Positions 2,842 to 49,554 are shown, counted from the first letter of the stretch. The stretch: 64,000 bases of DNA from a candidate division WOR-3 bacterium (GCA_049969615.1 JBMFOM010000001.1:32083-96082), one strand, 5' to 3'. The notes: generated by a model not told the origin, from the sequence alone. Translations and numbers: made by a program.

Positions 2842-2843
2842 TA

Positions 2844-6170: not shown

Positions 6171-7065
6171 AAACCTTACCAGTGTCTTCCTTGGCCTTGT
6201 CAATGGCTGCGGCTATACTCATAACCTTGTCACCGAAGGCTTCCTTTATATCCTTTTCGTTATTGAAGAAGCCGGTCTCCATGCCAAAGAATGAAACCTC
6301 TATGTAATCCTTCATTCTTTCCAGGGATTCCTGTAAGAGGGGCAGGTTAAGGTTAAATTCCTCATCAACGAGAAGACTTTCCAGGAAAACCGGATGCTTG
6401 GCCTTCATCCGAGCGTATGCTAAAAACTTAGGTGAGAGATCCACAATCATCCTCGCGGTTCTTCCGCCACCCCAGAGGATACGGAGGGCCTCAAGGAGAG
6501 CTGTAACCCTTTTGCTTTTTTCTGGTGCAGTTAGTTCCTTAATTTCCTTTTCGCCAGTTTCAAGTGTTCCGAATACTCCAACCCTGTCAAGCTCAACCAT
6601 GATTACCCCGCGGAAGATGTTGTTGTAAACCTCGGTCTCAAACATATTTCCACCCTCGGAAACGGCCTGGCCAAACTTCTCAAAGGAACGGGTCCCGAGG
6701 TCTCTGTCTCCCCTGAATGGGAAGCAACCTGTCGCGAAGGAGACGCGAACTGGAGAGGTGCGTCTTTTACCGCCGGAGGCATCCATGTATCCAAAGAGGT
6801 CTTCGTCAATGAATTCCCAGGGCCTACAGGGTGGCGTGACTTCCTGTCCTTTAACTTCGGAGTGCGGTTCAGAAAGAGCCCACCCCAGCTCTTCTATGCG
6901 GTCACGGAGGGCACGGCGCAAGGCTTGGCCCGATATGTAGGGCAATGTGTTTCCGTCAGGCAAAGTCACCTTCTTGGCAACGATCACATTCCCTTCGCTA
7001 TGGGAAGCGTTCACATTCCCAGCAGAAACCTTGAACAGGTATCCTATGGATATAGCTTTATTCAT
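6157..7065 (-). CDS. cas7: Cas7 backbone subunit (Csh2-like)
   Basis: ORF of 302 aa starting MNKAISIGYLFKVSAGNVNASHSEGNVIVAKK..., which matches the Cas7/DevR/Csa2 N-terminus. It lies between cas8b and cas5. Confidence 0.85.
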   Translation of the reverse strand: MNKAISIGYLFKVSAGNVNASHSEGNVIVAKKVTLPDGNTLPYISGQALRRALRDRIEELGWALSEPHSEVKGQEVTPPCRPWEFIDEDLFGYMDASGGKRRTSPVRVSFATGCFPFRGDRDLGTRSFEKFGQAVSEGGNMFETEVYNNIFRGVIMVELDRVGVFGTLETGEKEIKELTAPEKSKRVTALLEALRILWGGGRTARMIVDLSPKFLAYARMKAKHPVFLESLLVDEEFNLNLPLLQESLERMKDYIEVSFFGMETGFFNNEKDIKEAFGDKVMSIAAAIDKAKEDTGKVYAGS

Positions 7066-8553
7066 TTACTTTTCCTCCTTTTTCTCAGAGCCCTTCCAAA
7101 GGAAGGAGTTCATGGCGTATATGCTCAGCAGGGTCTTTATCCTCTGCCAGGGTTGACCGGCTATCTTCTCGCCTTTCTCTATCCTTATAATGTCTTCAGG
7201 CGTTGTCATTTCAAGCCTGAACTGGATGTCGTTGAGGGTCTTCAGGTAGTCATCTACATTTTTCGCGTTGCGCAAAGAGTAAAGCAGGCCCATCTCGTTT
7301 TCTTCCCTGCATTTACTGCCTAGCGAGTGGCCGAACCAAGCCAAGAGCTTTATGGTGTCTTCATCCATCTTAAGAACCTCCTGATGATATATGCTCAGAA
7401 ACTGCGAAAGATCTTTGATGGGATAAGGGTTATCCTCTTTGATTCTTGCCATGTAAAGAAAATCCTCAATAGGCTGAGCTATTTCAGAAAAATCAGTAAT
7501 ACCCCTGGCAACCTGCTCGCGCCAGATACTGTTCCAAGACTTGCCTTCCTTGGTCATAAATTGTTTTATTATCTGTGAAGGGTCTACTTCCCCTTTTCTC
7601 CATGATCTGTAAAGCCTGTAAAGGGGCTCTAACTTAGAAAACTCAGTGAAGCCAGTCATGTTGAAACCTTTTTTGGTCTGGCCAGAAATCCCCATAAGGA
7701 TTAAATTTGCCCGCACACTCTTTTCCTGTCCAAGAAGTAGAGAGAATACTTCCTCTACTTGTTTGCTGGTTTCTTGTTCATAAAGCTTTGAGAACACATA
7801 GAATAGAAAACCCAGCATGGTCTCGTGTAAACCTTCGCCGAAAAAGTCAGTAGAAAAGTTAGTCGCTTTACTTTTCGACTCCTCTGAAGCAATTATGGGC
7901 CTGATGGTATCCAAGAACCGAGAAAGGAAACCCAAATCATCCGAGTGGAAGATGAACATATGGAGATTGTCGCCTTGCCTTCTATAGAGAGTGCCTAGAA
8001 AGGCGGCCACTCCGGCCAAAGCACACATTGGACAAGACTGGTAGGCTCCTTTGAGGGAGGGGTAGAAATTTGAGAACTTGCCCGGCTCCACCAAGAAAGG
8101 ATAAAGATACTGCTTTAGGTCAACAAGAACGGTATTATCCCCACAAAAAATGCAGGGTCCCCTTTCTTTGGTTAACTTGATCTCTATTCGGTAAAACGGC
8201 TGATGTTCCCATTGTAGAACCGTTTTTTTCTTACCGTCCACTACATAAGTGTATTCCTGGGTTTTACCGGCACCAGCCTTAGTCCGTGGCGTGATCTTAA
8301 TAAAAACATTCGCGGGATCAACCCAGTTCATCTTCTCATAAGACTCTAACTTCCCGGTCTGAGAGTTGTAAAACTCGCCCTTGTTGCCCGTGGGTTTTAC
8401 CAAACATTTATTTACAAGCTTGTCTACAGTCTCTTGAAATTCTATCTCTTGCCCATCCTCAAGGTCAAGCAAGCACTTTAAGCGCTTTACTTGAACCTTC
8501 CCGTTATCTATCCAAAAATTCCCAGTGGGTTCAAGGCTGATTTTAATTCTCAT
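7066..8553 (-). CDS. cas8b: Cas8b (Csh1-like) large subunit
   Basis: ORF of 495 aa with zinc-finger-like CIFCG...CPMC motifs. Its position between cas6 and cas7 is where type I-B loci place cas8b. Confidence 0.65.
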   Translation of the reverse strand: MRIKISLEPTGNFWIDNGKVQVKRLKCLLDLEDGQEIEFQETVDKLVNKCLVKPTGNKGEFYNSQTGKLESYEKMNWVDPANVFIKITPRTKAGAGKTQEYTYVVDGKKKTVLQWEHQPFYRIEIKLTKERGPCIFCGDNTVLVDLKQYLYPFLVEPGKFSNFYPSLKGAYQSCPMCALAGVAAFLGTLYRRQGDNLHMFIFHSDDLGFLSRFLDTIRPIIASEESKSKATNFSTDFFGEGLHETMLGFLFYVFSKLYEQETSKQVEEVFSLLLGQEKSVRANLILMGISGQTKKGFNMTGFTEFSKLEPLYRLYRSWRKGEVDPSQIIKQFMTKEGKSWNSIWREQVARGITDFSEIAQPIEDFLYMARIKEDNPYPIKDLSQFLSIYHQEVLKMDEDTIKLLAWFGHSLGSKCREENEMGLLYSLRNAKNVDDYLKTLNDIQFRLEMTTPEDIIRIEKGEKIAGQPWQRIKTLLSIYAMNSFLWKGSEKKEEK

Positions 8554-8607
8554 CCTAACAACCTCCTCTTTTCACCCCCAAAGTATAATCCCCCCAGTCA
8601 AGGCCTT

Positions 8608-9480
8608 TCAACCCCATCTCACCACCTCCACCATCCCGAACCCCTGGGAGTTCTTTGAACCCAGGCCCGTGTCCAGGGCAATCTTCAGGAGCTCTGGCGG
8701 GCCAGAGAGCTCGTATAACCCGTTCCAGGCCTTGATGACCGTCCCCTTGAACTTGAGAACTTTTTCGTCCCTGGCGCCAACCCTCAGGGGTTTCACGAGC
8801 AGGCACCAATTCTCCTCTGGCTTCTGGCCATAAGCGGCTTCGTATTTCTTAAGGAGGTTCTCGGAGATAAGCCTTGGGAATTCCTTTTCAAGGGGTGAAT
8901 AGTAGTAGGTCTTTTTACGGCCTTCGGCGTCGTAAAGGGTACTGTATGTGGTGATGGGCGAGATGGCCCTGACCACCATCCACTCGGCCTTTGGTAAAAA
9001 CAGCACCTCAACGCCATCCACCACGCAGGGGTTGTGCCCAACTAACAGCGATTTCTCGCGAACCAGGTTCAGAACCAGGGACTCCAGGAAATCCGTGTGG
9101 ACCGAGGCTACTGACCATTTGATTTGATCTGTAAAGTGTATTTGTTCCCCCTCAATCTGGAAGCGCCCCTGGAGTCTTGAGAAGGTGAAGAGCTTAAAAT
9201 GTCGCTTTTCTCTCGGAAAACCCTTCTCGTGAAGGTTATCGGCAATGGCTTTTTCGAGGTGACGGTAGACGATTCCCTGAAGAATATGGTTGTATTGGAT
9301 TGGAAGGGTTATCCTCTCCTTCTCTGGGGAGAAGGTTATCTTAACCTGCACGTGCACATGATAGGCTAAACAAATATCCCAGCGCAAGTAAAAAGCTAGG
9401 TTTCTAAGAGGGTGCCCCCGAAAAATCCCGCGCCGAGAGCATTCCCTAATGGTTCCCTTTAGATCTTGTCCGGTCTCCAC
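8608..9480 (-). CDS. cas6: Cas6 crRNA-processing endoribonuclease
   Basis: ORF of 290 aa with the C-terminal glycine-rich loop GLGSKNSQGFGMVEV that is typical of Cas6. The real start is probably an internal GTG near 9351-9357 (VQVKITF...), which would give a canonical Cas6 N-terminus. It is the first gene of the cas operon. Confidence 0.8.
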   Translation of the reverse strand: METGQDLKGTIRECSRRGIFRGHPLRNLAFYLRWDICLAYHVHVQVKITFSPEKERITLPIQYNHILQGIVYRHLEKAIADNLHEKGFPREKRHFKLFTFSRLQGRFQIEGEQIHFTDQIKWSVASVHTDFLESLVLNLVREKSLLVGHNPCVVDGVEVLFLPKAEWMVVRAISPITTYSTLYDAEGRKKTYYYSPLEKEFPRLISENLLKKYEAAYGQKPEENWCLLVKPLRVGARDEKVLKFKGTVIKAWNGLYELSGPPELLKIALDTGLGSKNSQGFGMVEVVRWG

Positions 9481-27722: not shown

Positions 27723-29243
27723 TCAGCACACCCCGCACTCCCCGCATCCGGGAAAACACGGCGGGGTGGGTTCATCATCCATGGCCCTCCTCCACTCCGC
27801 GTCCAGAAAATCCCGTGAAACCCCGGAGCTCACACGGAGAAACGGAGCTGAAAGTGGATAGCCGGGGTCATCCAGATACAAAGAGGGGATGGCGCCCGCC
27901 TTCTTGAGGCCAGAGGCGAGGCTGATGTCCTCCTGGGCCGCGACCAACAGCGCCGCGGAAACGCTCTGGTCGCCGCGGGAGAGAATCGCCTCCTCTCTAG
28001 CCTTCCGGTAGCCATGAACCTTTAGGAGAACATCCTTTGGGACATTGATCAACGAAACCCTTTTCTTGTAATCCTCTTCTGAAAGGAACCGCGCGCGATA
28101 AAACGGGGTCCCCGCCTTTGGCACGAACGGGGAAACAGTGGCCCGAACACGTCTTTTAAAAACGCGCTTTATCTCGCTGACTTGGTCTGATATGGCCCGG
28201 ACATCCTCTTGGGTCTCTTTGGGCAAACCGATCATGTAGTAGAGCTTGAGGGAACCGAAGCCCACATCCCTTGCCCAGCGGGCAACATCAAGGATCCTCT
28301 CGTTTCCAAAGGGTTTGTTCAGGGACATTCGTAGGGAATCAGAGGCGACCTCAGGTGCGAGGGTAAGGGTCTTTGCACCACGCCTGGCGAGAAGGGCCAG
28401 GAGTTCTGGTTCAAGCGCGGATGCGTTGAGAGAGGTGGGGTTCAGGATAAGGTGTTGGGGAGAACCAGCGAGTATCTCGCGGATCTCAGGGTGTTCGGCA
28501 ACGGCTGAACCAACCAGAGCGACCTGCCTGGTGAGTCCCACGGGCAACTGGCCGAGAAGGTCCAAGACTATCTCGCCGGGTAGGAACCTCGGAGGCAGGC
28601 TGGAAAAACCTAGGAGGCAGAACCTACACCGGTTCGGGCAACCCCTTGAAACTTCAACCAGGAACTCGCCCTTGAAGAAGGAGTCCCTTTCAACAAACGC
28701 GGAGAAAGCATCCGACCGTGTCATGTCCGGGAGCCTGGCCCTTTCCGCATCCTCCTTCTGATCTGGGAGCCAGGCCCAGGCCCTCTCGGAAAGATACGAG
28801 AGAAAGCTTTGTCTTTCCTCATATATTCCCGTTTCCAGAAATGGGATAATGGCCTCTGCCTCACCCACCAGAACGGCATCAAAGGTATGCCAGAGGGGAA
28901 ACGGATTGGCAGAGGGGGCAATTCCGCCGGCAAAAAGCAGGTGAAAACCCCTCCTTCTCCTGTCCAGCTCTATTCCCTCGGCCTTAAGGAACCTGAGCGC
29001 TGGGAGGTAATCCGGCTCATATGAGAACGAGAAGAATATCAGGGAAAACTCATACAGTGGCTTGCCGCTCCTGATGCCGCGGGGGTTGTCCGTGAAAAAG
29101 ATGTCGGTGAAGGAGAGCCTATTTAAGCCGCGGAAGGCGGAGTGAAGGCCGAGGTTCTCCGCACCTATCCTCCTGGGGCCCGGAAAAACAAGAGCTATCT
29201 CAGGCTTGCCGCCCCCTAGGCCCTCGAGCCAAACTCTCTCCAA
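27723..29243 (-). CDS. Radical SAM protein with an N-terminal B12-binding-like domain (class-B-like)
   Basis: The CxxxCxxC motif occurs in VEVSRGCPNRCRFCLLGF, about 200 aa from the N-terminus. The C-terminus is Cys-rich (PPCFPGCGECGVC). The start overlaps the ftsZ 3' end by ~28 nt, so it is the last gene of the dcw operon. Confidence 0.75.
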   Translation of the reverse strand: MERVWLEGLGGGKPEIALVFPGPRRIGAENLGLHSAFRGLNRLSFTDIFFTDNPRGIRSGKPLYEFSLIFFSFSYEPDYLPALRFLKAEGIELDRRRRGFHLLFAGGIAPSANPFPLWHTFDAVLVGEAEAIIPFLETGIYEERQSFLSYLSERAWAWLPDQKEDAERARLPDMTRSDAFSAFVERDSFFKGEFLVEVSRGCPNRCRFCLLGFSSLPPRFLPGEIVLDLLGQLPVGLTRQVALVGSAVAEHPEIREILAGSPQHLILNPTSLNASALEPELLALLARRGAKTLTLAPEVASDSLRMSLNKPFGNERILDVARWARDVGFGSLKLYYMIGLPKETQEDVRAISDQVSEIKRVFKRRVRATVSPFVPKAGTPFYRARFLSEEDYKKRVSLINVPKDVLLKVHGYRKAREEAILSRGDQSVSAALLVAAQEDISLASGLKKAGAIPSLYLDDPGYPLSAPFLRVSSGVSRDFLDAEWRRAMDDEPTPPCFPGCGECGVC

Positions 29244-30379
29244 TCATCCTCCTCATCAGGATCAATCAGAGGCCTCTTGAATTCAAAACCAGAATAGATG
29301 TCGCCGCTCACCCCTGTCCGGTCCTTATCTTTGTCTGTCCTGGATGTCCTGGTCGGGCGAGTCACTGGGCCGGGGAAGCGGTATCCGGGCACAAATCCCC
29401 TTCTCTCCTTTATGCCGGTGGCTATCACCGTAACCCGGATGGTCTCGGTCAGCTCCCTATCCATGACCATACCCACTATCGTCTCAGGAGAGCCTGATTG
29501 GGCCATGGCCTCCTGGCTTATCGTGTTGAGTATGGCCTCCATCTCCTCCACTCTCAGGCCGAAATCTGGATTATCCGGAGACTGAATATTCACCAGTATC
29601 CTGTCTGCACCGGATATGTTTTCAATGCCGTCAAGGAGCGGCGCACTGAGGGCCATTTTGGTCGCGCTCACGGCCCTGTTCTCGCCCTTGGCTTCGCCTA
29701 TGCCAATGAGGGACAGGCCTCCGTTCTTCATCACGGTCCTGACATCCGCGAAATCCACATTCATATAGCCGGGGTTGCGTATGATGTCAACCACTGACCT
29801 GGCCGCGTGGTAGAGGATGTCGTCGGCCCGCGCGAAGGCCTGGGGTATGGGAAGCTCCCTTGTGGTCTCCGCGAGCTTGGTGTTGCTTATAACAAGAAGG
29901 ACATTGGCGTGTTCCCTGAGCTCCCTCAGCCCAGCCTCGGCCTTGTCCTGCTTGGCCTGGCCCTCAAACCTGAACGGCTTGGTAACTATTGCCACCACGA
30001 GGATTCCCTTTTCCTTGGCTATTCTGGCCACCACCGGGCTGGCACCGGTTCCCGTACCGCCGCCCATACCAGCTGCGATGAAAACCATGTCGTAGCCCTC
30101 TATTGCCTTTTCTATCTCTTCCTCGGATTCCTCTGCGGCCATCTTTCCAACCTCCGGATCAGCGCCAGCACCAAGCCCCCTGGTCACGGTGCTTCCCAGG
30201 GGTATCTTGATGTCGGCAAGGCATGTTTCCAAGACCTGCCTGTCCGTGTTGGCCGCGGCTATGGCCGCGCCAGTAAGCCCCTTCCTCACCATGTGATTTA
30301 CGGCATTGCACCCAGCCCCGCCAACGCCTATGACCAGTATCCTGGCCGGATCTGTCCTATCGTCGTAATAGACCTTCAT
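29216..30379 (-). CDS. ftsZ: Cell division GTPase FtsZ
   Basis: [10 protein letters not shown] and [13 protein letters not shown] tubulin-signature motifs are present. Confidence 0.95.
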
Positions 30380-30395: not shown

Positions 30396-31613
30396 TTAAA
30401 ACATATCTTTTATGTTCTCCCAGAATTGTTTGAAAACCACACGCGGCCTGGGTTTCAAAACACTCTGGCTCGCCATCTTCACCAGGCCGACCGCGACCGC
30501 GAAGTCAGCAGTGGCAACGGCCTCGGAGAAGGACTCAACGCCCCTCGGCGTCCCTATGGTAACGGGGAGACTGAATATCTCCTCCGCCATCTCCCTGGCT
30601 CCGGGCAAGGCAGATGTGCCACCGACAAGGAGAATCGGCGTCCCGGCCCTCGTGACCCGATAAAGCCCCGCGCGCTCCAGCTCCGCCCTTATCCTGGTGA
30701 GGAGGTCACCAACCGCCTGCTCTATCACCTGGGAGAGCCTCCTTCTGGCAACGCCGTATTCAACGCCTCTCTTTGAATCCCGAACAGTTATGGTCTCTGC
30801 CTCGTCAACCGTGTAGTAGTTGCCCACGACGCCGTATTTCTCCTTCAGGTGGGCCGCTGTGGCCTGGCTCATCAGGAACTCAGCCGCTATGGCCTCGGTT
30901 ATGTAATCCCCTCCCCATTCCATCACATCAACATTCAGGAGCATCTCGTCCTGCCAGACAGCGACATCCGTCGTTGTCCTGCCAATATCAAGCAGGATAG
31001 CCCCCTCCTCAAAATCCTCCTCGTCCATGACCCCATACGAAGCCGCTATTGGCTGAAAGAAAAACAGGGGCTGACGTATTCCAGCGCTAGAGAGGCACGC
31101 AGTTATGTTCTCAAGAAACACCCTGTCAGCAGTCACTATGTATGCCTCCAGCTCCAGCCTTACACCAGCGAGGCCAACCGGATTCTTTATGCCCCTGGTG
31201 GAATCAACCGCATACTGGTTGGGGTGGACATATATTATCTCGTGATTCGCCGGAAGCGAGATGGATTTCGCCTGCTCAAGGACGCGCTTCACATCATCCT
31301 GGGTTATGGGCTTGCCCTTTTTCACTGTCACAAGGCCGGACGAGCCTTTTGAGTATATCTGGCGACCCGTTATTCCGGCCGCGGGTATAAGGTTCTCCAG
31401 CTTTAGATCAGCCATCCTGCATGTCTCGGCCACCGCGGCCTTTATCACTGCGGTAGCCCTGTCCATGTTGACTATGACTCCCCCCCTTATTCCCCTGGAC
31501 GGTACCTGGGCCGCTCCATTTATGAATACCCTTCCGTCCCTGAGCTCTCCAGCAACGCAACGGATGAAGCCCGAACCCAGGTCCAATCCCAGAATACCTT
31601 CTTGTGTTTTCAT
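30396..31613 (-). CDS. ftsA: Cell division protein FtsA
   Basis: An actin-like ATPase with the N-terminus GLDLGSGFIRCVAG. It lies directly upstream of ftsZ. Confidence 0.9.
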   Translation of the reverse strand: MKTQEGILGLDLGSGFIRCVAGELRDGRVFINGAAQVPSRGIRGGVIVNMDRATAVIKAAVAETCRMADLKLENLIPAAGITGRQIYSKGSSGLVTVKKGKPITQDDVKRVLEQAKSISLPANHEIIYVHPNQYAVDSTRGIKNPVGLAGVRLELEAYIVTADRVFLENITACLSSAGIRQPLFFFQPIAASYGVMDEEDFEEGAILLDIGRTTTDVAVWQDEMLLNVDVMEWGGDYITEAIAAEFLMSQATAAHLKEKYGVVGNYYTVDEAETITVRDSKRGVEYGVARRRLSQVIEQAVGDLLTRIRAELERAGLYRVTRAGTPILLVGGTSALPGAREMAEEIFSLPVTIGTPRGVESFSEAVATADFAVAVGLVKMASQSVLKPRPRVVFKQFWENIKDMF

Positions 31614-32476
31614 GTGTCTCCTCCCGGCAAAAATTCTATTTCGGTCTCCAGGGCAACGCCATGAGCCTCCAGAACCCTCTTCCTGACGCGCTCAATGAGC
31701 TCGCGGACATCCCTGGCCGTGGCCTGTCCGAGGTTGACTATGAAATTGGCGTGGAGCGTGGAGACCATAGCATCGCCCACACGGAGGCCCTTCAGTCCAG
31801 CGGATTCAATGAGCGCACCAGCGTGCCCGCCTGGCGGATTCTTGAATATACACCCAGCCGAGCGCTGGCCTATGGGCTGATGACGCTTCCTCTTCTCGTT
31901 GTAATAATACATCGCGTTCCTGAGCTTCGCTGGATCGCTTCTCTCCAGGCTCATGGCAACCCGGAGCAGTATCCCAGCGGCGGGCAAGGCTGAGGCCCTA
32001 TATGTCATCGCCAGTTCATCCTTTGAAAATCTGACGAGGCCCTCCCCGGTCATAACCTCGGCCCAGGCGACCAGCTCCGCCATCTCCCTGCCGTACGCGC
32101 CAGCATTCTTGGCGACCGCGCCGCCCATGGCGCCGGGTATGCCGTAGAGCTCCTCCAGACCGCCAAGCCCCACCTCGGCCGCGAAAAGGCACACCCTCGC
32201 GAGGCTCTCGCCGGCTCCAGCTATCAACAGACCCTCCTCAACGGATATGCCCTTCAGCCTCCTCGCGGAGACAAGGATGCCGGGGATGCCCTCGTCCGCG
32301 ACCAGCACATCCGTGCCAGCGGAAAGGACCGAAACCCGGAGGTTCTCTGCCTTGGCGAACGAAAGGCACTCGGAGACCTCCCCGGGGGTGGCTGGCTCCG
32401 CGTAGAAGCGCGCGGGTCCGCCTATGCCAAAGCTGGTCATCGGCCCCACTATCACATCGCGTTTTATCTCAACCAT
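31610..32476 (-). CDS. murB: UDP-N-acetylenolpyruvoylglucosamine reductase
   Basis: An FAD-binding N-terminus (FGIGGPARFYAEP) is present. The gene overlaps the ftsA start by 4 nt, so no ftsQ or ddl lies between them. Confidence 0.85.
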   Translation of the reverse strand: MVEIKRDVIVGPMTSFGIGGPARFYAEPATPGEVSECLSFAKAENLRVSVLSAGTDVLVADEGIPGILVSARRLKGISVEEGLLIAGAGESLARVCLFAAEVGLGGLEELYGIPGAMGGAVAKNAGAYGREMAELVAWAEVMTGEGLVRFSKDELAMTYRASALPAAGILLRVAMSLERSDPAKLRNAMYYYNEKRKRHQPIGQRSAGCIFKNPPGGHAGALIESAGLKGLRVGDAMVSTLHANFIVNLGQATARDVRELIERVRKRVLEAHGVALETEIEFLPGGDT

Positions 32477-33848
32477 TCAGGAACTCCTCCCCTATTTTCC
32501 AGACATTCCCAGCGCCCAGGGTCAAGAGCAGGTCTCCGGGGCGGAGAGCCTCCCTCAGGACCTCCAGGACATCCTCGCCCTCCTCAATGAGATGGACATC
32601 CTTGTGCCCGGCCTCTTTAACTGCCTCGTAGATCAGCCTGGAGGAAACACCCTCTATTGGCTTTTCGCCGGCAGGGTATATAGGAAGGATGAAAAGGAGG
32701 TCAGAGTCAAGAAAAGCGCCACCGAACTCCGCGTGCAGGTAAAGGGTCCGGGTGAACCTGTGGGGCTGAAATAGAACCACTATCCTGCCATCCTTCCAAT
32801 AGTTGCGAGCGGCCGCGAGGGTCGCCCTTATCTCGGTGGGGTGATGGCCATAATCGTCAACCACCCGGACGCGGTCGCGCTCGCCTTTTATCTCAAACCT
32901 GCGCTCTACCCCAGAGAACGAGGCAAGCCCCTCGGTTATGGCATCATGGGGTATCTCCAGCTCCAGGGCAACCGCTATGGCCGCCAGCGCGTTGGAGACA
33001 TTGTGTATGCCTGGAACCGAAAGCGAAACCTTCATTATCTCCTCACCATCCCAGAAGACCAGGAAATCCGAACCAAGGTCTCTGAGGGTTATCTCCCTCG
33101 CGGAGACATCCGCCTGTCTCACCATCCCGTATGTGATTACCCTGTGTTCAACGAGGGGCATGAGCTTGCGGACCGGATCAGAGTCAAGGTTAAGGACAGC
33201 AACGCCATAGAACGGAACCCGCGAGACAAACCTGAGGAATGCCTCGGAGATGTCCTCCATCCCGGAATATGTGTCAAGGTGCTCTGGATCAAGGTTGGTG
33301 ACAACAGCTATTGTAGGGAAAAGCTCAAGGAAGCTCCTGTCAGACTCGTCTGCCTCAGCGACCAAGTATGGTCCCTGGCCGAGCCGTGCGCCTGTCCTGG
33401 TGCCGTGGAACCTCCCGCCTATAACCACAGTGGGGTCAAGGCCCGCGCGCGCCAGGACATGCGCTACCATGGAGGAAGTTGTGGATTTGCCGTGCATTCC
33501 GGATATGGCTATGGAGAACTTGACCCGCATCAGCTCAGCCAGCATCCGTGCCCTTGGAACTACAGGGATGCCCATTTCCCTCGCGGCGACAAGCTCGGGG
33601 TTATCATCCCTTATAGCTGAGGATACAACCACCAGGTCCGCGCCAACAGGGTTGGAGGGGTCATGGCCGTAGAATACCCTCGCGCCGAGCTCCTCCAGGT
33701 GATTGGTTGTCTCCTGCCTGGCAACATCAGATCCCGTGACCGTGAAACCGAGGTTAATGAGGACCTCGGCTATGCCGCTCATCCCGGAGCCACCTATGCC
33801 AATAAAGTGAACGCGCTCGTATTTCTTTTTTGGGAGGATCATGGGCAA
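32469..33848 (-). CDS. murC: UDP-N-acetylmuramate--L-alanine ligase
   Basis: HFIGIGGSGMSGIAEVL and a GTHGKSTT-like motif (SGMHGKSTTSSM) are present. Confidence 0.9.
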   Translation of the reverse strand: MPMILPKKKYERVHFIGIGGSGMSGIAEVLINLGFTVTGSDVARQETTNHLEELGARVFYGHDPSNPVGADLVVVSSAIRDDNPELVAAREMGIPVVPRARMLAELMRVKFSIAISGMHGKSTTSSMVAHVLARAGLDPTVVIGGRFHGTRTGARLGQGPYLVAEADESDRSFLELFPTIAVVTNLDPEHLDTYSGMEDISEAFLRFVSRVPFYGVAVLNLDSDPVRKLMPLVEHRVITYGMVRQADVSAREITLRDLGSDFLVFWDGEEIMKVSLSVPGIHNVSNALAAIAVALELEIPHDAITEGLASFSGVERRFEIKGERDRVRVVDDYGHHPTEIRATLAAARNYWKDGRIVVLFQPHRFTRTLYLHAEFGGAFLDSDLLFILPIYPAGEKPIEGVSSRLIYEAVKEAGHKDVHLIEEGEDVLEVLREALRPGDLLLTLGAGNVWKIGEEFLNG

Positions 33849-33909
33849 CCCCCTGTGTTCGGGTCTCCGGGCGAGGCTCCCGGCTCAGGCAGACCAAATG
33901 CAGTCGGTC

Positions 33910-34590
33910 TCATAGCCCTTCCAGAATCGTCCTGGCCGCGGTGAGGAACTTCCTTGATTCCGAGAGGAGATCCGCGGTTTCCTTGGCCTTAAAATCCCTG
34001 AGCCTGAACTCTGCCTCGGTATATGCGTCGCGAAGCATGATAAGCGAAGTGGATAGCTCCCGCGGGACCAAGCCGGTCTTAACGAACCTCTCCATGAACA
34101 TGTCCAGACAGCGCCGTGTATCAGACGGCTCATCCCCGCCCATTATCAGAAGAGCCTTGGCCGCGAGGTAGGCCGAGTAGTAGGCCGAGGAAACCGCTAT
34201 GTTATAAAGCCCTTTATCCATAAGAGCTTCCACGGCCATGAGGTTCTTCTCGGACCTGAGGAGGAGGGTCTTCATGCGCCTGGCGTGACAATCGCTCCGG
34301 CTACGCTCGGCCTTGTGCCTTACGCTCCCCATCATGGCTATCCGTTTCTTCCTCTCCTCAGCCTCATGGCTGGGCATGGCAAGGGTCATCACATGCACTC
34401 CGGTCTCCTGGAGTATGGATGTCTCCAGCTCCGAGAGCGCCCTCCTGGTTTCGGTGTCAAGGCCAGCATCGCCATCCAGGACAAGGACACCGACCAAACC
34501 GCCATCATCCTTCAACATCATTATGTCAACCAGGGAATCGCCCAGAAGCTGGGATATTCCTACCCGGTATGCGTTGTAAGCCTCGTTCAT
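33910..34590 (-). CDS. Hypothetical protein with an N-terminal nucleotidyltransferase-like region and a C-terminal HEPN-like helical domain. It is translationally coupled to murG.
   Basis: The 226-aa protein has a 4-nt ATGA overlap with the murG stop. The C-terminal segment SSAYYSAYLAAKALLIMGGDEPSDTRRCLDMF resembles the first helices of HEPN. The canonical Rx4-6H motif is not obvious. The N-terminus contains LVGVLVLDGD, which is hhhDxD-like. It has no TM segment, so it is not FtsQ. Confidence 0.55.
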   Translation of the reverse strand: MNEAYNAYRVGISQLLGDSLVDIMMLKDDGGLVGVLVLDGDAGLDTETRRALSELETSILQETGVHVMTLAMPSHEAEERKKRIAMMGSVRHKAERSRSDCHARRMKTLLLRSEKNLMAVEALMDKGLYNIAVSSAYYSAYLAAKALLIMGGDEPSDTRRCLDMFMERFVKTGLVPRELSTSLIMLRDAYTEAEFRLRDFKAKETADLLSESRKFLTAARTILEGL

Positions 34591-35648
34591 TCAAGAACCT
34601 CCTTTTTTGTTTCTTTCAATACCACCTCAAGAACCACGGCCGCGGCACGAGGTTTTGCGAATCCCCTGATGGCCTGGGCCATAAAGGAAAGCCTCTGGCT
34701 ATTGCGGAGCAAATCGCACAGGAGGCGAGGAAGCTCCTCAAGACGGTCCTCAGAAAGGACAACGACACCACCTGTTTTCGCGAGGGCCTCCGCGTTTGCC
34801 CTCTGGTGATCGTCGGCCGCGTGGGGAAACGGAACGAGAATGGCAGGAAGGCCAAAGAAACCGAGCTCCTGCGAGATCCCGCCTCCAGCCCTCGCTATGG
34901 CTATGTCGGCCGCGGAATACGCGGGTGAGACATTCGGTAGGTAATCAACCAAGAGAAAATTTTCGCCCCTTTCTGGATAATCCCTCCTGAACATGGGGTA
35001 ATCCCTCTTGCCGGCTATGACGAGAAACTGAAGGTCTGGCACAGACGTGGCTATCTCAAGCGCGATGGCCGTGAGGGCCCTGGCGCCCTGAGAACCGCCC
35101 ATCACGAGGACGAGGGGCCTCTCATCAAAACCGAGGCTTGCCCGTGCCTCTGGCTTTGGAATCTCCCGGAGGTTCCCGCGGAGCGGATTTCCGGAGACAA
35201 AACACCTAGCTCCGGACAGGTGAGCCTCTGTCTCAGGGAATGTGGTGAAAACAGCCGCCGCGCCGCGAGCGAAGGCCCGGACAGTTGCCCCAGGTATGAC
35301 ATTCTGCTCCATGAGCCAATATCTTTTTCTCATTATTCTGGCCGCCAGAAGTATAGGGACGGATGCATATGAACCGAAAGCCACTATGGGTCCGCGCCCA
35401 ACCAGGCGCAGGCACTTGATTGTCCCGAAGGCTATCTTTATGCCGGATGTGAGCCTCCTTCCGACCGGAACGCCGGACAGCGGGCCAGAGGGAACCTTGA
35501 TGCCAGAGATGCCCTCGGCAATTATTCCCTCCTTGATCTGGCCTAGGAGAAACAGGACAGGGATTCCCCTGGACCGGGCCTCTTCCGCGAGGGCCATCGC
35601 TGGGTAGATGTGTCCGCCGGTCCCACCGGTCGCTATCAGGAGTTCCAC
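34587..35648 (-). CDS. murG: Undecaprenyldiphospho-muramoylpentapeptide beta-N-acetylglucosaminyltransferase
   Basis: The N-terminus is IATGGTGGHIYPAMALAEE. Confidence 0.9.
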   Translation of the reverse strand: MELLIATGGTGGHIYPAMALAEEARSRGIPVLFLLGQIKEGIIAEGISGIKVPSGPLSGVPVGRRLTSGIKIAFGTIKCLRLVGRGPIVAFGSYASVPILLAARIMRKRYWLMEQNVIPGATVRAFARGAAAVFTTFPETEAHLSGARCFVSGNPLRGNLREIPKPEARASLGFDERPLVLVMGGSQGARALTAIALEIATSVPDLQFLVIAGKRDYPMFRRDYPERGENFLLVDYLPNVSPAYSAADIAIARAGGGISQELGFFGLPAILVPFPHAADDHQRANAEALAKTGGVVVLSEDRLEELPRLLCDLLRNSQRLSFMAQAIRGFAKPRAAAVVLEVVLKETKKEVLE

Positions 35649-41876: not shown

Positions 41877-43477
41877 TTTCCTCCCATGGCCAAAAGGCCG
41901 TAGTCCCTGTTTATCAAGAAAAGGGCTATTTTCCTGAAACACGGTGCCGCGACATCCCCGCCATAGTGGGCGTTCTTCGGCTCATCAACAACGACATATA
42001 TCAGGTATTTTGGGGAATACGCCGGGAAAAACCCCACGAAGGAGGCTATGACCCTGGTCTGGCTGTAGCCGCCGGAAACCGTGTCCGGCTTCTGCGCGGT
42101 GCCGGTTTTGCCCGCTATCATCAGGCCGTCTATCATCGCTTTTCTGCCCGTTCCCTCCTTCACCACGGCTATCATCAATCCAATAAGGGTATCTGCTATG
42201 TCCGGCGAGAGAACCCTCCGGATGAGAATCCTCTGAGGGAACTCCCTGAACTCCTCGCCCGAGACCATCCTCTTTATGAGCCTAGGCGCGAGGAGCTCCC
42301 CTCGGTTGGCTATCGCACAGAAGGCCATCGCCATGCCTATTCCGTTGATCATTATGCCCTGACCCATGCCCGCGTTCGCGGTTCTTATCTTCCGCCATCT
42401 GGAGGGCTTCTCGGGCCTCTTTGACCATTCTCCGGGAAGACAAATCCCCGTTGGCGTGAAAAACCCGAATCTCATGAGAACCTCGTATATTTTTTCCGGG
42501 CCGAGCTGGAGGCCAAGATAAGCCATGCTCCTGTTGGAGGAGTGAACGAGCGCGTCGCGCCAGGTGAGACCACCGGGAAACTGCTCAACATCCCCGATGA
42601 GGTGCTTTCCGACCTGGAGCTTTCCCCGGCCAATGGGGACGGAATCCGAGAGGTTAATGAGGCCGAGCTCAAGCGCCTTTGCCACGATAAACGGCTTCAG
42701 GGTTGAACCGGGCTCAAAGGGATCGGTTAGCGCGTATATCCTGTCTGAGGGCGGATACTGTGTAAGGGCGAGGATCTCTCCGGTCTGAGGGTCAACCGCT
42801 ATGACGAATCCCTTGTCCGCGCCGGTCTGCTCAACTGTTTGTTTTATTGCTGAGTAAGCGAAATCCTCAAGGTCAGAATCTATGGTCAAATAAACATCAT
42901 AGCCGGGCTCCGGAAGCCTCTTCTCCGCGTCGGGAAATGCTATGAGTTCGCCATCAGCGGTTCTCAGAAACATCTCGTAGCCGGGCTTGCCGGATAGGTA
43001 ATCCTCCAGAACCATCTCCGCGCCGGAAAGCCCAACGCTATCATAGCCGACCTTTCCCACTATGCCCCTGGTGGCTTCACCCAGGGGACAAAAGCGCAGG
43101 CTACCTGGCCTGAGGAAGATGCCGCTCACATCGGAGAGCTTCTCCGCGTCCTCTGGCGAAAGGCCCCTTGCCAGCAGGACAGCCTTCTTGTCCCCCATGG
43201 AAACGGGCGAAACGCCGAGCCTGACGAGGGCACGCTTTGGATCCGAGACGGGGCCTGACTGGTAGAGGTTGAAACCCAGGCTGTTGCCGGCGAGAAGCGC
43301 GCCGCGCCTGTCATATATTATGCCCCTCTCGCCGGGGAGCTCCACCCGGGCCAGGTACTGCCTCTTGCCCTGCTCCTTATATTTACTGGCGCCCAGCCAC
43401 TGGAGCCATGCCAAGCGCAAGGCTATCGCGGCTACCCAGAGAAGGAGCAGGATGACCAGCGTTCTTGTCCTCGTCAA
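41873..43477 (-). CDS. ftsI: Penicillin-binding protein 3 (FtsI) transpeptidase
   Basis: An N-terminal TM helix (LVILLLLWVAAIALRL) and an SxxK-type active site (STLKPF) are present. It lies in dcw context. Confidence 0.85.
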   Translation of the reverse strand: MTRTRTLVILLLLWVAAIALRLAWLQWLGASKYKEQGKRQYLARVELPGERGIIYDRRGALLAGNSLGFNLYQSGPVSDPKRALVRLGVSPVSMGDKKAVLLARGLSPEDAEKLSDVSGIFLRPGSLRFCPLGEATRGIVGKVGYDSVGLSGAEMVLEDYLSGKPGYEMFLRTADGELIAFPDAEKRLPEPGYDVYLTIDSDLEDFAYSAIKQTVEQTGADKGFVIAVDPQTGEILALTQYPPSDRIYALTDPFEPGSTLKPFIVAKALELGLINLSDSVPIGRGKLQVGKHLIGDVEQFPGGLTWRDALVHSSNRSMAYLGLQLGPEKIYEVLMRFGFFTPTGICLPGEWSKRPEKPSRWRKIRTANAGMGQGIMINGIGMAMAFCAIANRGELLAPRLIKRMVSGEEFREFPQRILIRRVLSPDIADTLIGLMIAVVKEGTGRKAMIDGLMIAGKTGTAQKPDTVSGGYSQTRVIASFVGFFPAYSPKYLIYVVVDEPKNAHYGGDVAAPCFRKIALFLINRDYGLLAMGGK

Positions 43478-43715
43478 TCGCCATAACCTCCGGATATCTC
43501 ATTCCTATGCTTTTCGCCCTCTGTTCTATGACCAGGAGCCTCTCCTCCTCAGCCAGGCGCGACCTCGCCAGGTTATACTCACGCCTGGCGGACGCGAGCC
43601 GGGATTTCATCTCCGCGAGGGCCCGGGCCTCTGAGTAAACCGTGCTGTTAGCCCATGCCAAAGGGAACAGAAGGGCAAACAAGAGAAAGAATGCCAAAAG
43701 AGACCTCTTCATCAA
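43383..43715 (-). CDS. ftsL: Cell division protein FtsL-like (single TM plus coiled coil)
   Basis: MMKRSLLAFFLLFALLFPLAWA followed by a charged helical region. It sits between rsmH and ftsI. Its 3' end overlaps the ftsI start, so the exact stop is uncertain. Confidence 0.6.
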   Translation of the reverse strand: MMKRSLLAFFLLFALLFPLAWANSTVYSEARALAEMKSRLASARREYNLARSRLAEEERLLVIEQRAKSIGMRYPEVMAIDEDKNAGHPAPSLGSRDSLALGMAPVAGRQ

Positions 43716-44568
43716 TCTCTCCTTTTTTCGCTATGCCGCGAAGTTTCGCTGAGCGAGACCTCGGATTCTCCGCCCTCTCCCGCTGGGAGGGGCAGATTGG
43801 TTTTCGGGTCATGGGTTCGGCTCCGGGTAGCCTTCCGGCGAACTTGACCAGCCTATCCTCTATGGAGTGATAGGATATGACCGCGAGCCTGCCGCCCAAA
43901 CGGAGACAGGACAAGCCGCTGATCAGACCGCGCAGGAGCGCGCCCGGCTCATCGTTGACGAACATGCGGAGGGCCTGGAACACCCTGTGAAGGGCCTTTC
44001 CCCTTCGGCCGGGCGGAAGGGCCTTTTCCACGCAGGAAACCAGGTCCCCGACCGTCCAGAGGGGCCTTGAGGAGACGATTCGCCTGGCTATTGAGGCCGA
44101 GGCTGGCTCCTCGCCGTAGGCCCGCAGGAGCTCGGCTATCCGGTTCGCCGGCAGGGAATTCAGGAGCTCGCTTGCTGGGATGCCCTCGGTCGGATCGTAG
44201 CGCATGTCCAGGGGTTCATCCAAGCGCTTGAACGAGAAGCCGAGGCCAGACCCCTCAAGGAGAAAAGAGGACAGGCCCAGGTCAAGAAAAATCTCCTGTG
44301 GCTGAGGGAACATCCCTTCGGCGAGGATCTCCTTTATCATCCTGAAATCACCCTGCATGACCCTTATGCCGGCCATAGCGAGGCTTGGCCCAGCAACCCG
44401 GATGGTGGAGGGGTTTCTCTCTATGCCAAGAACGAGGCCGCCCGGACCAACAGCCTCAAGGAACCTGAGCGCGTGGCCGCCGAAACCGAGTGTCCCGTCA
44501 ACCACGAGATCCCCGGGCTGGGGCTCAAGAAGCGCGAGGACTTCCTCCACCATGACCGGCCGATGCAT
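43648..44568 (-). CDS. rsmH: 16S rRNA (cytosine1402-N4)-methyltransferase RsmH (MraW)
   Basis: MHRPVMVEEVLALLEPQPGDLVVDGTLGFGGHA is the canonical RsmH N-terminus. The ORF track's longer form begins at 44634. Confidence 0.9.
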   Translation of the reverse strand: MHRPVMVEEVLALLEPQPGDLVVDGTLGFGGHALRFLEAVGPGGLVLGIERNPSTIRVAGPSLAMAGIRVMQGDFRMIKEILAEGMFPQPQEIFLDLGLSSFLLEGSGLGFSFKRLDEPLDMRYDPTEGIPASELLNSLPANRIAELLRAYGEEPASASIARRIVSSRPLWTVGDLVSCVEKALPPGRRGKALHRVFQALRMFVNDEPGALLRGLISGLSCLRLGGRLAVISYHSIEDRLVKFAGRLPGAEPMTRKPICPSQRERAENPRSRSAKLRGIAKKGEIDEEVSFGILSLVCPSVPFGMG

Positions 44569-45074
44569 CAGAGCCTCAGCCCTTCTGGCAGATCCACATT
44601 CTCCGAGTATTCCTGATATTTCTCCGGCGACCATATCTCAAATCCTCTTGGCAGTTTAATGAAGAGCGCCTTGTCCTTTATGCCAGCGTGTTCCGCGAGG
44701 TGGCCGGGTATGACGACTCTGCCCGCGGAATCAACATCAACCGTCTCAGCAAAACCCTGAATGAGCCTGGCCGCGGCCCTGCCCGGCCCAGGCCTGGAAT
44801 CAATGTCCCTGAGCTGCTCCTCAAGCTTCTCCCACTCCGGCTCCGGATAAACCACAATGCAGGGTTCACCAAGGTGGGTCATCACCAGCCTACGAGATGG
44901 CCTCGCCATGGCCCTCTTCACCACCCTCATGAGGTGGTCCCTGACGCCACCGGGGATGACCACTCGGCCCTTGGGATCCACGGCCGCAAGGGCGTTATTC
45001 CTGTTCTTAGGCGTCTTAGCCACCTTATGCCACCTTATGCCAGACACAAAGTATATAGCATTGTCAAGCCTCAA
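44568..45074 (-). CDS. mraZ: Transcriptional regulator MraZ
   Basis: It carries two DXXXR-type MraZ repeats (VDPKGRVVIPG and VDSAGRVVIPG). The N-terminal extension in the ORF is probably not translated. Confidence 0.85.
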   Translation of the reverse strand: MRLDNAIYFVSGIRWHKVAKTPKNRNNALAAVDPKGRVVIPGGVRDHLMRVVKRAMARPSRRLVMTHLGEPCIVVYPEPEWEKLEEQLRDIDSRPGPGRAAARLIQGFAETVDVDSAGRVVIPGHLAEHAGIKDKALFIKLPRGFEIWSPEKYQEYSENVDLPEGLRL

Positions 45075-45230: not shown

Positions 45231-45938
45231 TCAGGGGGAAACGCGAGGGGGAGGATGTGGATTGTTGTCTTTTGAGCCTTTATCCCTCATGAAAAGCAGG
45301 AGCGCGCCCGCCTGGCACCTCGCGAGGGCCCTCTCGTGGGAACCTGTCTTGGCATATATCAGGGTGTATGCCTTCTGGCGATAGGCTTGACGTTCGGCAG
45401 GCGAAAGCGATGCGAACGCGGCTTTGGCGCGCGAGAGCTCATCCTCGGCGTATCCGCTGACCCTGTCTTGCCGAACATAGCCAACCGGATAACGCAGGTC
45501 GCCCCTCCTCAGGACGGCCTTCAGGATGGCCAGGGGACACCGTGGTTCTGTTTTGCTCAGGGCATAGGTGTATTCAAGGACACGAATAGCCTCATCAACG
45601 CGCTCCTGGCCGTATGTCCGGTAGAGATCAGAGAGATCTTTATCTGTAAAAACAAAACGTCTCTCGGAAATCAATCGCTCTCCTGGCACGAGGCGCCGCC
45701 TGGGGCCGCTGATCCCCCTGGCAACATATCCAGCCGAGACCAGGGATTTCATGGCCCTCTGAACGCTCCTGACCGAATATCCCGTTGCCCTGGCTATCTC
45801 CTCGTTGGAAACCGACCCCATGTTGATTATAGCGATGAGAACGGCGCCGTCTCGCCTTCCAAGGGTCTCGGTTATCCTTCTCTGGGTTTCCCACTTCACA
45901 CCGGTAATAGTGCTCAGTCCGCGCGCGATGTCACCCAC
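45231..45938 (-). CDS. Winged-helix (MarR-like) DNA-binding protein, hypothetical
   Basis: The segment LIAIINMGSVSNEEIARATGYSVRSVQRAMKSLVSAGYV has a helix-turn-helix pattern. The gene lies upstream of mraZ on the same strand. Confidence 0.55.
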   Translation of the reverse strand: MGDIARGLSTITGVKWETQRRITETLGRRDGAVLIAIINMGSVSNEEIARATGYSVRSVQRAMKSLVSAGYVARGISGPRRRLVPGERLISERRFVFTDKDLSDLYRTYGQERVDEAIRVLEYTYALSKTEPRCPLAILKAVLRRGDLRYPVGYVRQDRVSGYAEDELSRAKAAFASLSPAERQAYRQKAYTLIYAKTGSHERALARCQAGALLLFMRDKGSKDNNPHPPPRVSP

Positions 45939-47984: not shown

Positions 47985-48830
47985 TTAACCATTTTTCACC
48001 CTTTCCCACCCGGCCGCAAAAATACAGAGTGCCCTCTGAGCCTTGTTCGCCCCAGCCCGGCATGACACCCATAGCTTTCTGAGCCTTCCGGGCCTCCGTC
48101 GTCCCCTGAGGATATCCTGGTCCCGCGCGAGGAAAAACCTGGCGAGGCAGGACTCAATGCCAATAGCCCGAGCGAGCGCAAATGCCTTTCCGAGGTCAAC
48201 TATGGGCAATATCCTCTCCGCGTCAATCCTCCAGATCAGCCTCGGGCCAAAGGTAAATGAGCTCAGAGCGGCGTGCGCGGCGATGATGATGAGCTCATCC
48301 TCAGGGGAGAGAAACCCCTCACTGGAACGGTTCCAGAGCTTGCCGGGTGGAATAAAGAGCTCTCTGGCAACCGGATGCGCGTGCAGATCAACATTTATCC
48401 TCCCCCTGTGCATGACAACGCTTTTAGGGCTGGATATTACCTCGGAGAAACCCTCCCCTGAGAGTATCCGGACAAAACTGGAGATATCGCGAGGCCTGAC
48501 CAGGATGTCTATGTCCAGGAGGGGCCTTTCCTGGGGAAGGTAGAGGCCGCGGGCTATGAGGGACGCGCCCTTCATGGGCAGAAAATCAGGCGCAACCTCC
48601 CTCAGAAACGACATGATAGCCATGTGCGCGAGGGTATTTGAGGCCTGGCTGGAGTAATCCGGAAAGAGGGTTGACCTGGCCTCCGGGCAGTCTATGACAG
48701 GATAAACCAGGCCGAGAATACCATGCTGGAGTGCTAGAACACGAAAACCATGCCAGTCGTGAACCTCAGCAGGCCTTCCCCTCAGGAACGAGAGGAGCGC
48801 GTCCGCGAGCTCGGTAGGGTTATGCTCCAA
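47985..48830 (-). CDS. Uncharacterised nucleotidyltransferase-family protein, the kind found in lasso-peptide / HprK-related kinase neighbourhoods
   Basis: A 281-aa protein. It is the last gene of the operon and overlaps the kinase gene by 11 nt. The family assignment is by pattern recognition only. Confidence 0.5.
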   Translation of the reverse strand: MEHNPTELADALLSFLRGRPAEVHDWHGFRVLALQHGILGLVYPVIDCPEARSTLFPDYSSQASNTLAHMAIMSFLREVAPDFLPMKGASLIARGLYLPQERPLLDIDILVRPRDISSFVRILSGEGFSEVISSPKSVVMHRGRINVDLHAHPVARELFIPPGKLWNRSSEGFLSPEDELIIIAAHAALSSFTFGPRLIWRIDAERILPIVDLGKAFALARAIGIESCLARFFLARDQDILRGRRRPGRLRKLWVSCRAGANKAQRALCIFAAGWERVKNG

Positions 48831-49554
48831 TACCGGCTATCTCCTTGATGGCCCGCAGTCCTTCTTTCTTGCCCGGAAAACGGAGGGCAAAAATCCCCTG
48901 GTCGCTCAGACGAGCAACGAGCGCAAGGCCAGGCTTTCCAGTGGCCCGAAGGTTGAAGTTCTCCCGAAGCAGTTCCAGGGCCGCGTCGCGGCCACTGATC
49001 CTCTCAAGCCTAGTCCGGGAGCCAGGGGCATACCTGAGCGAGATTATCTGAAATAGTCCCGCGGGTCCGGAAATGCTGTCCGGCAAAAATGACATGGGCA
49101 TGGAGGGAAAGACGAATTTGCCGTCAAGGCTTACCGGCGCGCCATCCTCGGCCATGAACCCGTATCCTTCATCGCAGAGGGCCATCGCGAGGGTTGTCTT
49201 TCCGGAACCCCTTGGGCCGATCATCAGCAGGGCGCCCGGCTCCATTCTAACGGCCGAGGCGTGGAGCACCAGGGCATCAGACATCTCCGGAGCGAGAATT
49301 CTCCTGGTCCAATAGGAAAGGACATTGATGAAATCCAGCTCAGCGGGAAGCTCACTGAAGAAACAGACATTGCCCTCTGTCTCAAAGAAATCCTCCTGAT
49401 TCCTCAACCCGACCGAGAGAACGAGATCCGGCGGGCCCGGGTCCCGGAACCTTGATATGAAACCAGAGAAGAGTTCAGCAAACTCTGGGGAGTGATCCCA
49501 GGCCACTTTCTTTCCGAAGTGGAGGGTAATTAGAGCCTTGGGCGAGTCAACCAT
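48820..49554 (-). CDS. HPr kinase C-terminal-domain-like (HprK-related) serine kinase
   Basis: A P-loop (LMIGPRGSGKTTLAMALCDEGYGFMAEDG) matches the HprK C-domain pattern G-x-SG-x-GKS/T ... L-x-ADD. There is no N-terminal HprK domain. Confidence 0.7.
   Translation of the reverse strand: MVDSPKALITLHFGKKVAWDHSPEFAELFSGFISRFRDPGPPDLVLSVGLRNQEDFFETEGNVCFFSELPAELDFINVLSYWTRRILAPEMSDALVLHASAVRMEPGALLMIGPRGSGKTTLAMALCDEGYGFMAEDGAPVSLDGKFVFPSMPMSFLPDSISGPAGLFQIISLRYAPGSRTRLERISGRDAALELLRENFNLRATGKPGLALVARLSDQGIFALRFPGKKEGLRAIKEIAGIGA

Follow-up and report, generated by a model that had tools for sequence, protein, structure and literature searches.

On balance, we favour the explanation that a gene lying between murG and murC in the division and cell wall (dcw) operon of a candidate division WOR-3 bacterium encodes a domesticated, vertically inherited and non-catalytic protein derived from the HEPN family, which would act as a non-enzymatic adaptor or regulator. 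The gene, called X here, lies at 33910..34590 on the minus strand of the stretch of DNA that was analysed (GCA_049969615.1 JBMFOM010000001.1:32083-96082), which has a length of 64,000 nucleotides (nt) and is called the window below, with positions counted from its first letter. X has the HEPN fold, has lost the polar site of the HEPN domain, has no motif of a nucleotidyltransferase (NTase), keeps the murG-X-murC synteny and is under strong purifying selection. The most economical mechanism would be that X, as an adaptor or regulator without enzymatic activity, acts with an inferred partner in lipid II synthesis or division.

Gene X and its reading frame

Gene X is an ATG-started open reading frame (ORF) of 226 amino acids (aa), and the identical protein in NCBI (P0001) carries the name HEPN domain-containing protein, candidate division WOR-3 bacterium. 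The full-length homologues, seven in number, are all of exactly 226 aa, with identities of 57-100% and without any insertion or deletion; beyond the identical P0001 there are six clusters of 226-aa homologues with identities of 57-86%. The ratio of nonsynonymous to synonymous substitution (dN/dS), calculated by the Nei-Gojobori method for close pairs, is 0.07-0.10, with the constraint present on both domains. We take X to be a real and constrained gene because of the Pfam HEPN match (E=1.4e-13), the full-length homologues and this low dN/dS.

The ATG of X (34590-34588) overlaps the TGA of murG (34589-34587) as ATGA, and a Shine-Dalgarno sequence AAGGAGG, as read from the sequence, is located at 34598..34604 on the minus strand, within the 3' end of murG and 7 nt before the ATG. 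The ATGA overlap together with the Shine-Dalgarno sequence inside murG would imply that translation of X is coupled to that of murG. The grand average of hydropathy of X is -0.16, and its hydrophobic stretches are too short for a transmembrane (TM) helix. It is noted that the original prediction, which described a soluble 226-aa ORF having no TM helix and overlapping the murG stop as ATGA, agrees with the ORF, the hydropathy and the codon positions found here, and that its description of the locus is correct except for the strand, X lying on the minus strand.

The HEPN domain

The C-terminal half of X, residues 106-226 (33913..34275, minus strand), is a UPF0332/AF0298-like four-helix bundle. 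The match to PF05168 mentioned above has a score of 51.5 bits, relative to a cut-off of 22, and covers residues 107-219, and the half has the four-helix up-and-down arrangement by which the HEPN fold is defined. It is therefore a true HEPN domain, as the earlier suggestion of a HEPN-like C-terminal half had it.

To describe the site residues of the domain, 10 members of the X family were aligned with 148 related HEPN proteins. The arginine of the SR-AYY motif (the R135 equivalent) is present in 122 of the 148 relatives while it is serine or leucine in 10 of the 10 X-family members, and the histidine of K-T-H-x-G (the H158 equivalent), present in 142 of the 148, is replaced in the X family by alanine, threonine, proline, valine or a gap. 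In the R-x-x-x-D-Y motif the counts among the relatives are 140 for R, 131 for D and 138 for Y, whereas in the X family R190 is replaced by H, Y, V or A, D194 by E or R, and Y195 by F or a gap. The sequence standing for this motif in X is the degenerate Y190-T-E-A-E-F195 (34006..34023, minus strand), with H-T-E-A-E-F in its relatives. All the five near-invariant polar HEPN residues are thus substituted in every one of the 10 X-family members. The structural motifs of UPF0332, AYY and FVKTGxxP, are kept in the family.

The closest solved sequences to the HEPN domain of X are those of PDB 9xbc and 9xbd. In the aligned region the chains of these two differ by F versus Y in R-x-x-x-D-[Y/F], and X naturally has F. 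The difference suggests an unpublished study in which the tyrosine of the motif was mutated; literature searches on UPF0332 or on the two PDB codes found nothing relevant.

The N-terminal half and the linker

The N-terminal domain, residues 1-73 (34372..34590, minus strand), is strongly acidic, with an isoelectric point (pI) of 4.1, and its predicted secondary structure is α1-β1-β2-α2-β3. It is probably a degenerate minimal nucleotidyltransferase (MNT) having neither the GS nor the DxD motif. The G-S motif is absent, and so is a GS helix, β1 being joined directly to β2 as a hairpin. Where active MNT domains have the catalytic D-x-D, X has L32-V33-G34 (34489..34497, minus strand) in the BLASTP alignment, in which "GGLVGVLVL" of X pairs with "GSDIDLLVL" of P0008. 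In the short subclade described below the D-x-D segment is deleted, as seen in the alignment to P0069. The segment LVGVLVLDGD, which had been proposed as an hhhDxD catalytic segment, therefore does not hold as such: its DGD comes after the strand and is not conserved, with the true DxD position being L32-V33-G34 or deleted.

A derivation of the domain from an NTase, which we consider probable, is suggested by the relatives of the whole protein. In a HMMER search that was exhaustive over 1.84 billion representatives, the best match outside the X family is P0008 with 63 bits, relative to 54.8 bits or less for HEPN-only proteins. P0008 is NTP_transf_2+HEPN by Pfam and is collinear with X over residues 28-221, and further fused MNT-HEPN proteins (P0013, P0069, P0130) are among the matches. 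Moreover, the full-length X model aligns over 140-151 residues with KNTase, with LinB and with a "nucleotidyltransferase-like protein". The domain order agrees with that of fused MNT-HEPN or KNTase-like proteins, as originally predicted: P0008, an active fusion, is collinear with X from residue 28.

A type II KH domain was also considered for the N-terminal half and was rejected, because β2 and β3 are separated by a single helix (46-63), with no βααβ core and no GXXG.

A candidate interaction surface is the helix of residues 48-64 (TRRALSELETSILQETG; 34399..34449, minus strand), which is more conserved than any other helix of the family. T48, R49, R50, E54-E62 and G64 do not vary within the 226-aa clade, and R49, E54, E56, I59, L60 and G64 are invariant across both subclades. 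The two domains are joined by a basic linker helix, residues 74-105 (34276..34371, minus strand), with a pI of 10.8. It is the least constrained part of X, with dN/dS of 0.12-0.27 and pLDDT of 57-58 at residues 81-100, and it is shortened in the 190-aa subclade, where the linker gap is present in P0102 and P0157. Judged by the site residues of the two domains, both halves of X are catalytically dead.

Conservation of the murG-X-murC slot

The murG-X-murC arrangement is present in about 10 distinct lineages, down to an X identity of 25-29%. The X-bearing loci are the window and L001/2, L003/4/11, L005/6/20, L007, L008/9, L010, L012, L016/17, L018 and L019. In every recovered locus having upstream sequence murG is directly upstream of X, and murC is directly downstream in all recovered loci except the 768-bp contig L007, which ends at the stop of X. 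On the longer contigs the order is ftsW-murG-X-murC-murB-ftsA-ftsZ, followed by a B12-type radical SAM gene. The question raised earlier, whether orthologues of X occupy the same slot, can thus be answered in the affirmative for all relatives found.

A divergent short subclade, consisting of P0102, P0157 and the protein of L012, has lengths of 188-193 aa and is 25-29% identical to X. It is of the same family as X from end to end (hhalign probability 97.7%, E=1.6e-12) and is still HEPN-like by hhalign (92.7%), with the Pfam signal gone; in L008, X of this subclade overlaps both of its neighbours by 4 nt. In the 226-aa clade the identity of X tracks that of MurG, with 78% for X versus 71% for MurG, and 57% versus 58%. 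Among MurG relatives of at least 54% identity, X follows in every case with recovered downstream context, with the next-best MurG relatives having an identity of 42% or less.

In the outgroups L013, L014, L021 and L022 murG is followed directly by murC and X is absent. L014 has an FtsQ_DivIB_C gene between murC and ftsA; in L022 murB and ftsA are adjacent, and ftsQ is absent as well as X; at the ftsQ position of L013 there is a 213-aa ORF without assignment; and in L021 the cluster is split. From this gene order, X is a clade-specific insertion, the presence of which is uncoupled from the absence of ftsQ in the cluster. A correlation of the presence of X with the loss of ftsQ was rejected, as the outgroup L022 has neither. 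The family is rare, being found in 2 of 185,579 species representatives, both labelled WOR-3, and at 5 loci in the JGI metagenome collection (241 million metagenome records).

Note also that in L012 (508-1548) the murG call consists of a 269-aa product and an ORF of 55 aa while tblastn gives a full-length MurG across 508-1500; the split probably reflects a frameshift in the assembly and not a genuine truncation.

Proposed origin and role of gene X

The proposed pathway is as follows. The starting point would be a HEPN module of the UPF0332/PF05168 type, which most likely carried a fused MNT by then, as in the MNT-HEPN proteins of type VII toxin-antitoxin (TA) or defence type, and which would have entered the murG-murC slot in the common ancestor of a small group within WOR-3. 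Both catalytic centres would then have been lost, and X would have become fixed, vertically inherited and translationally coupled in the dcw operon. Without catalysis, X would work as a cytoplasmic adaptor or regulator, probably in the dimeric form; HEPN proteins are usually dimeric. It would be made in step with MurG and would bind its partner where lipid II synthesis or the divisome faces the cytoplasm, with the candidate partners being MurG, MurC, or FtsA/FtsZ. The candidate binding surface is the invariant acidic helix T48-G64, the remodelled face of the HEPN domain, or both. By this binding, X may coordinate precursor synthesis with division in its lineage.

Several observations weigh against this explanation. 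With regard to the N-terminal domain, no Pfam NTase match is found even at E<=10, and NCBIfam gives none either. When this domain only is compared with the NTase domains of MNT-HEPN fusions, hhalign gives a weak match, with a probability of 2.5% (P=0.018). In shuffle-controlled Smith-Waterman comparisons, 2 of 10 pairs are significant in the larger run of 3000 shuffles (P0157-P0069 with z=5.5 and P0001-P0008 with z=3.6) and 2 of 12 in the other run; since two pairs only are significant per run, we do not claim the NTase homology as proven. A Foldseek search of the domain versus the PDB favours uS3 and CDF-CTD-like α/β folds, with nothing at E<=0.001, and the likeness to uS3 is one of topology only. 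A profile search of the PDB with the alignment of the domain gives noise only, with FtsZ at E of about 0.9 taken as a chance match. With regard to the HEPN domain, the core motifs AYY and FVKTGxxP are kept, by which binding of a ligand by X may still be possible. In addition, the short subclade has lost one HEPN helix and between the subclades X has diverged much faster than MurG (28% versus 55% identity), so that the constraint is not uniform.

A more far-reaching form of the proposal, which we put forward tentatively, as possible rather than probable, is that X is an unrecognised lineage-specific cytoplasmic part of the peptidoglycan-precursor and divisome machinery. In this form X would have arisen by the complete domestication of a TA-type MNT-HEPN fusion, would be the first doubly inactivated TA or defence module hard-wired in the dcw cluster, and would couple MurG/MurC physically to the division apparatus.

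Alternative explanations

Two of the alternatives, like the proposal above, give X a role without catalysis. X may be a ligand sensor, with the remnants of its MNT-HEPN nucleotide-binding cleft binding a nucleotide or nucleotide-sugar (e.g. ATP, UDP-GlcNAc or UDP-MurNAc-peptide) and thereby tuning MurG and MurC to the supply of precursors. HEPN domains fused to NTases are the substrate-binding or regulatory domain in KNTase and GlnE-type enzymes (PMC3710099), the structural motifs A-Y-Y and F-V-K-T-G-x-x-P are kept in X, and X sits between two enzymes using UDP-sugar substrates. However, the polar residues of the HEPN site and the whole GS/DxD phosphate- and metal-binding apparatus are gone, and one HEPN helix is deleted in the short subclade, and we regard the sensor as unlikely. 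A slightly lower probability still is given to X being a non-cleaving RNA-binding regulator of dcw expression, which would draw on the basic linker, the inactive HEPN domain and a KH-like N-terminal domain, after the manner of KhpA/KhpB (EloR/Jag) or of MtlR and Swt1, which Anantharaman et al. proposed to be regulators with an inactive HEPN domain. The N-terminal domain, however, has a continuous helix in the place where a KH core would be, has no GXXG loop and is strongly acidic; the HEPN arginines are lost; and KhpB is matched structurally only at a root-mean-square deviation of 8.7-9.2 Å.

The other two alternatives concern an active toxin and the missing ftsQ. X may be a working TA or defence module, as was predicted originally; it would then be a selfish or defensive fused MNT-HEPN toxin-antitoxin that resembles FhepTA and is kept in the dcw transcript by addiction. 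The domain order is that of FhepTA and other MNT-HEPN fusions (PMC13000451), and the closest relative, P0008, matches PADLOC candidate defence models and MntA. But X itself has zero matches in the PADLOC and NCBIfam scans, its GS and DxD are missing and its five HEPN polar residues replaced, and it has F195 where HepT and FhepTA have, beside the RNase motif, the tyrosine that is AMPylated by MntA. Of the features of type VII HepT/MntA or FhepTA, namely an RNase motif with an AMPylatable tyrosine, an active MNT and a mobile location, X has none. We conclude that X is not an active TA or defence module because of the dead centres, the fixed murG-murC slot with vertical inheritance, the low dN/dS of about 0.1 and the MurG-like divergence within the 226-aa clade; this alternative is largely refuted and has hardly any credence left. 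Nearly as improbable is that X takes over the function of FtsQ, as was also suggested originally, or makes up for the absence of ftsQ and ddl, or both, in a lineage that lost these genes. The X-bearing clusters have no ftsQ, with no FtsQ-like ORF detected in the window or the related loci, while the outgroup L014 has an FtsQ_DivIB_C gene and no X. By contrast, FtsQ is a bitopic protein acting in the periplasm, and X has no TM segment, no signal peptide, no POTRA (PF08478) and no FtsQ_DivIB_C (PF03799), HEPN being its sole Pfam match; a phmmer search with the FtsQ of L014 finds nothing; the outgroup L022, with murB and ftsA adjacent, has neither ftsQ nor X; and ftsQ may simply sit elsewhere in the genome. 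The replacement of FtsQ thus finds no support.

Relation to known systems

With the domesticated, non-catalytic protein that we favour, the comparison with known systems is as follows. X shares its HEPN family and fold with the UPF0332 or "classic" HEPN proteins (PF05168; AF0298, PDB 2hsb; TT1696, 1ufb; 9xbc/9xbd). Unlike these, it has its polar residues substituted and an N-terminal α/β domain fused to it, is fixed in the dcw cluster and is not paired with an MNT gene. With the fused MNT-HEPN proteins (P0008, P0013, P0069, P0130, and FhepTA SO_1440 of Shewanella; PMC13000451) it shares the domain order, at a similar size; however, these keep GSxxRG…SDxD and an intact HEPN motif, which is R-x-x-x-D-Y in the P0008 type, while X has none of them. 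FhepTA, the only experimentally studied fused TA form, keeps both activities and resides on mobile elements (PMC13000451). It has an RφxxxH RNase motif with an adjacent tyrosine and its HEPN domain is of the HepT-type toxin group, which pairs with MntA in type VII TA, whereas X is chromosomal, vertically inherited and embedded in an operon, and resembles the UPF0332-like group.

Domestication of the MNT-HEPN fusion was described by Anantharaman et al. in KNTase, GlnE and related enzymes, where HEPN is inactive and the NTase is working (PMC3710099). In ANT(4'), LinB, AAD(9) and GlnE/GlnD the NTase is active and HEPN serves for substrate binding; by contrast, the NTase centre of X appears to be erased, which would leave it no enzymatic role. 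X would thus extend the domestication of MNT-HEPN, earlier seen only with an active NTase, to a pure pseudoenzyme, that is, a protein of a conflict system (HEPN, probably MNT-HEPN) which was stripped of both activities and is kept under strong purifying selection in an operon.

Few gene arrangements of bacteria are as conserved as the dcw cluster; stable insertions in its core are rare and the murG-murC slot is normally empty. The lineage-specific accessory genes of the cluster (ftsQ/divIB, sepF, ylm) encode small non-enzymatic products within it and are co-transcribed with it, which would hold for X as well; X has no relation in sequence or fold to FtsQ, SepF or ZapA. In the library that was searched, nothing was found on a connection of HEPN domains with the divisome. 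X suggests that cell-wall synthesis and division in uncultured phyla have accessory factors yet to be explored, with its impact being limited by the few WOR-3 metagenome-assembled genomes and the uncultured host.

The dcw cluster and the surroundings of gene X

The genes of the cluster in the window, all on the minus strand, are in the order mraZ, rsmH, an FtsL-like ORF, ftsI, murE, murF, mraY, murD, ftsW, murG, X, murC, murB, ftsA and ftsZ. They were identified by Pfam on orthologous loci, by tblastn equivalence and, for MurG and FtsA, by direct matches. At the upstream end are mraZ (44568-45074) and rsmH (43648-44634), followed by the 110-aa FtsL-like ORF (43383-43715), which has an N-terminal TM segment plus a coiled coil and overlaps the 3' end of rsmH and the 5' end of ftsI; it has zero Pfam or NCBIfam matches, and the ftsL label is given by position and architecture only. 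The upstream neighbour of X is murG (34587..35648), with PF03033+PF04101 on the identical protein P0158. The downstream neighbour is murC (32469..33848), identified by its translation; tblastn alignments to orthologues start at its residue 2-3, and the true start is probably the ATG at 33842. The spacer between X and murC (33849-33909) is 61 nt in length, or 67 nt if murC begins at 33842, and no terminator-like site was found in it. In relatives the two genes abut or overlap, with a gap of 1 nt in L001 and an overlap of 4 nt in L008.

Further downstream are murB (31610-32476), ftsA (30396-31613; TIGR01174, E=9.5e-82) and ftsZ (29216-30379). The overlap of murB with ftsA, of 4 nt, leaves no space in the cluster for ftsQ or ddl. 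FtsQ, POTRA and Ddl were not found by phmmer with the outgroup FtsQ in the window and the related loci and by Pfam on 30 other ORFs of the window. The gene order and the 4-nt overlap agree with the original description of an otherwise textbook mraZ...ftsZ cluster, with murB overlapping ftsA and with no ftsQ or ddl.

A B12-binding-type radical SAM gene (PF19864+PF04055, TIGR03960-like; 27723-29243, minus strand) overlaps the 3' end of ftsZ by 28 nt. Its counterparts are at 13301-14848 in L003, 15118-16641 in L008, 6642-8165 in L012 and 16467-18014 in L014. The gene is directly 3' of ftsZ in all X-bearing loci, and in the outgroup L014 it comes after two TPR genes; in these lineages it may be one more conserved and unexplained addition to the dcw cluster. 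At the other end, mraZ is directly preceded by a gene for a MarR-type winged helix-turn-helix regulator (45231-45938, minus strand) that is oriented the same way. An "uncharacterised nucleotidyltransferase" (PF14907, NTP_transf_5; 47985-48830, minus strand) is another NTase-fold gene near the cluster and is unrelated to X, and upstream of it is an ORF with a weak AAA_33 P-loop match (48820-49554, minus strand).

Finally, a CRISPR array at 33-1473, which reaches the left edge of the window, contains the 30-nt repeat GTTTCAATCCCTCATAGGTAGGCTATGAAC at least 22 times, at a spacing of 65-68 nt. It is adjoined by a type I-like cas operon (1849-9480, minus strand) with cas1 (1849-2883), cas4 (2844-3335), cas5 (5451-6203), cas7/DevR-Csa2 (6157-7065) and cas6 (8608-9480), where the large ORFs at 3335-5497 and 7066-8553 are likely candidates for cas3 and cas8.
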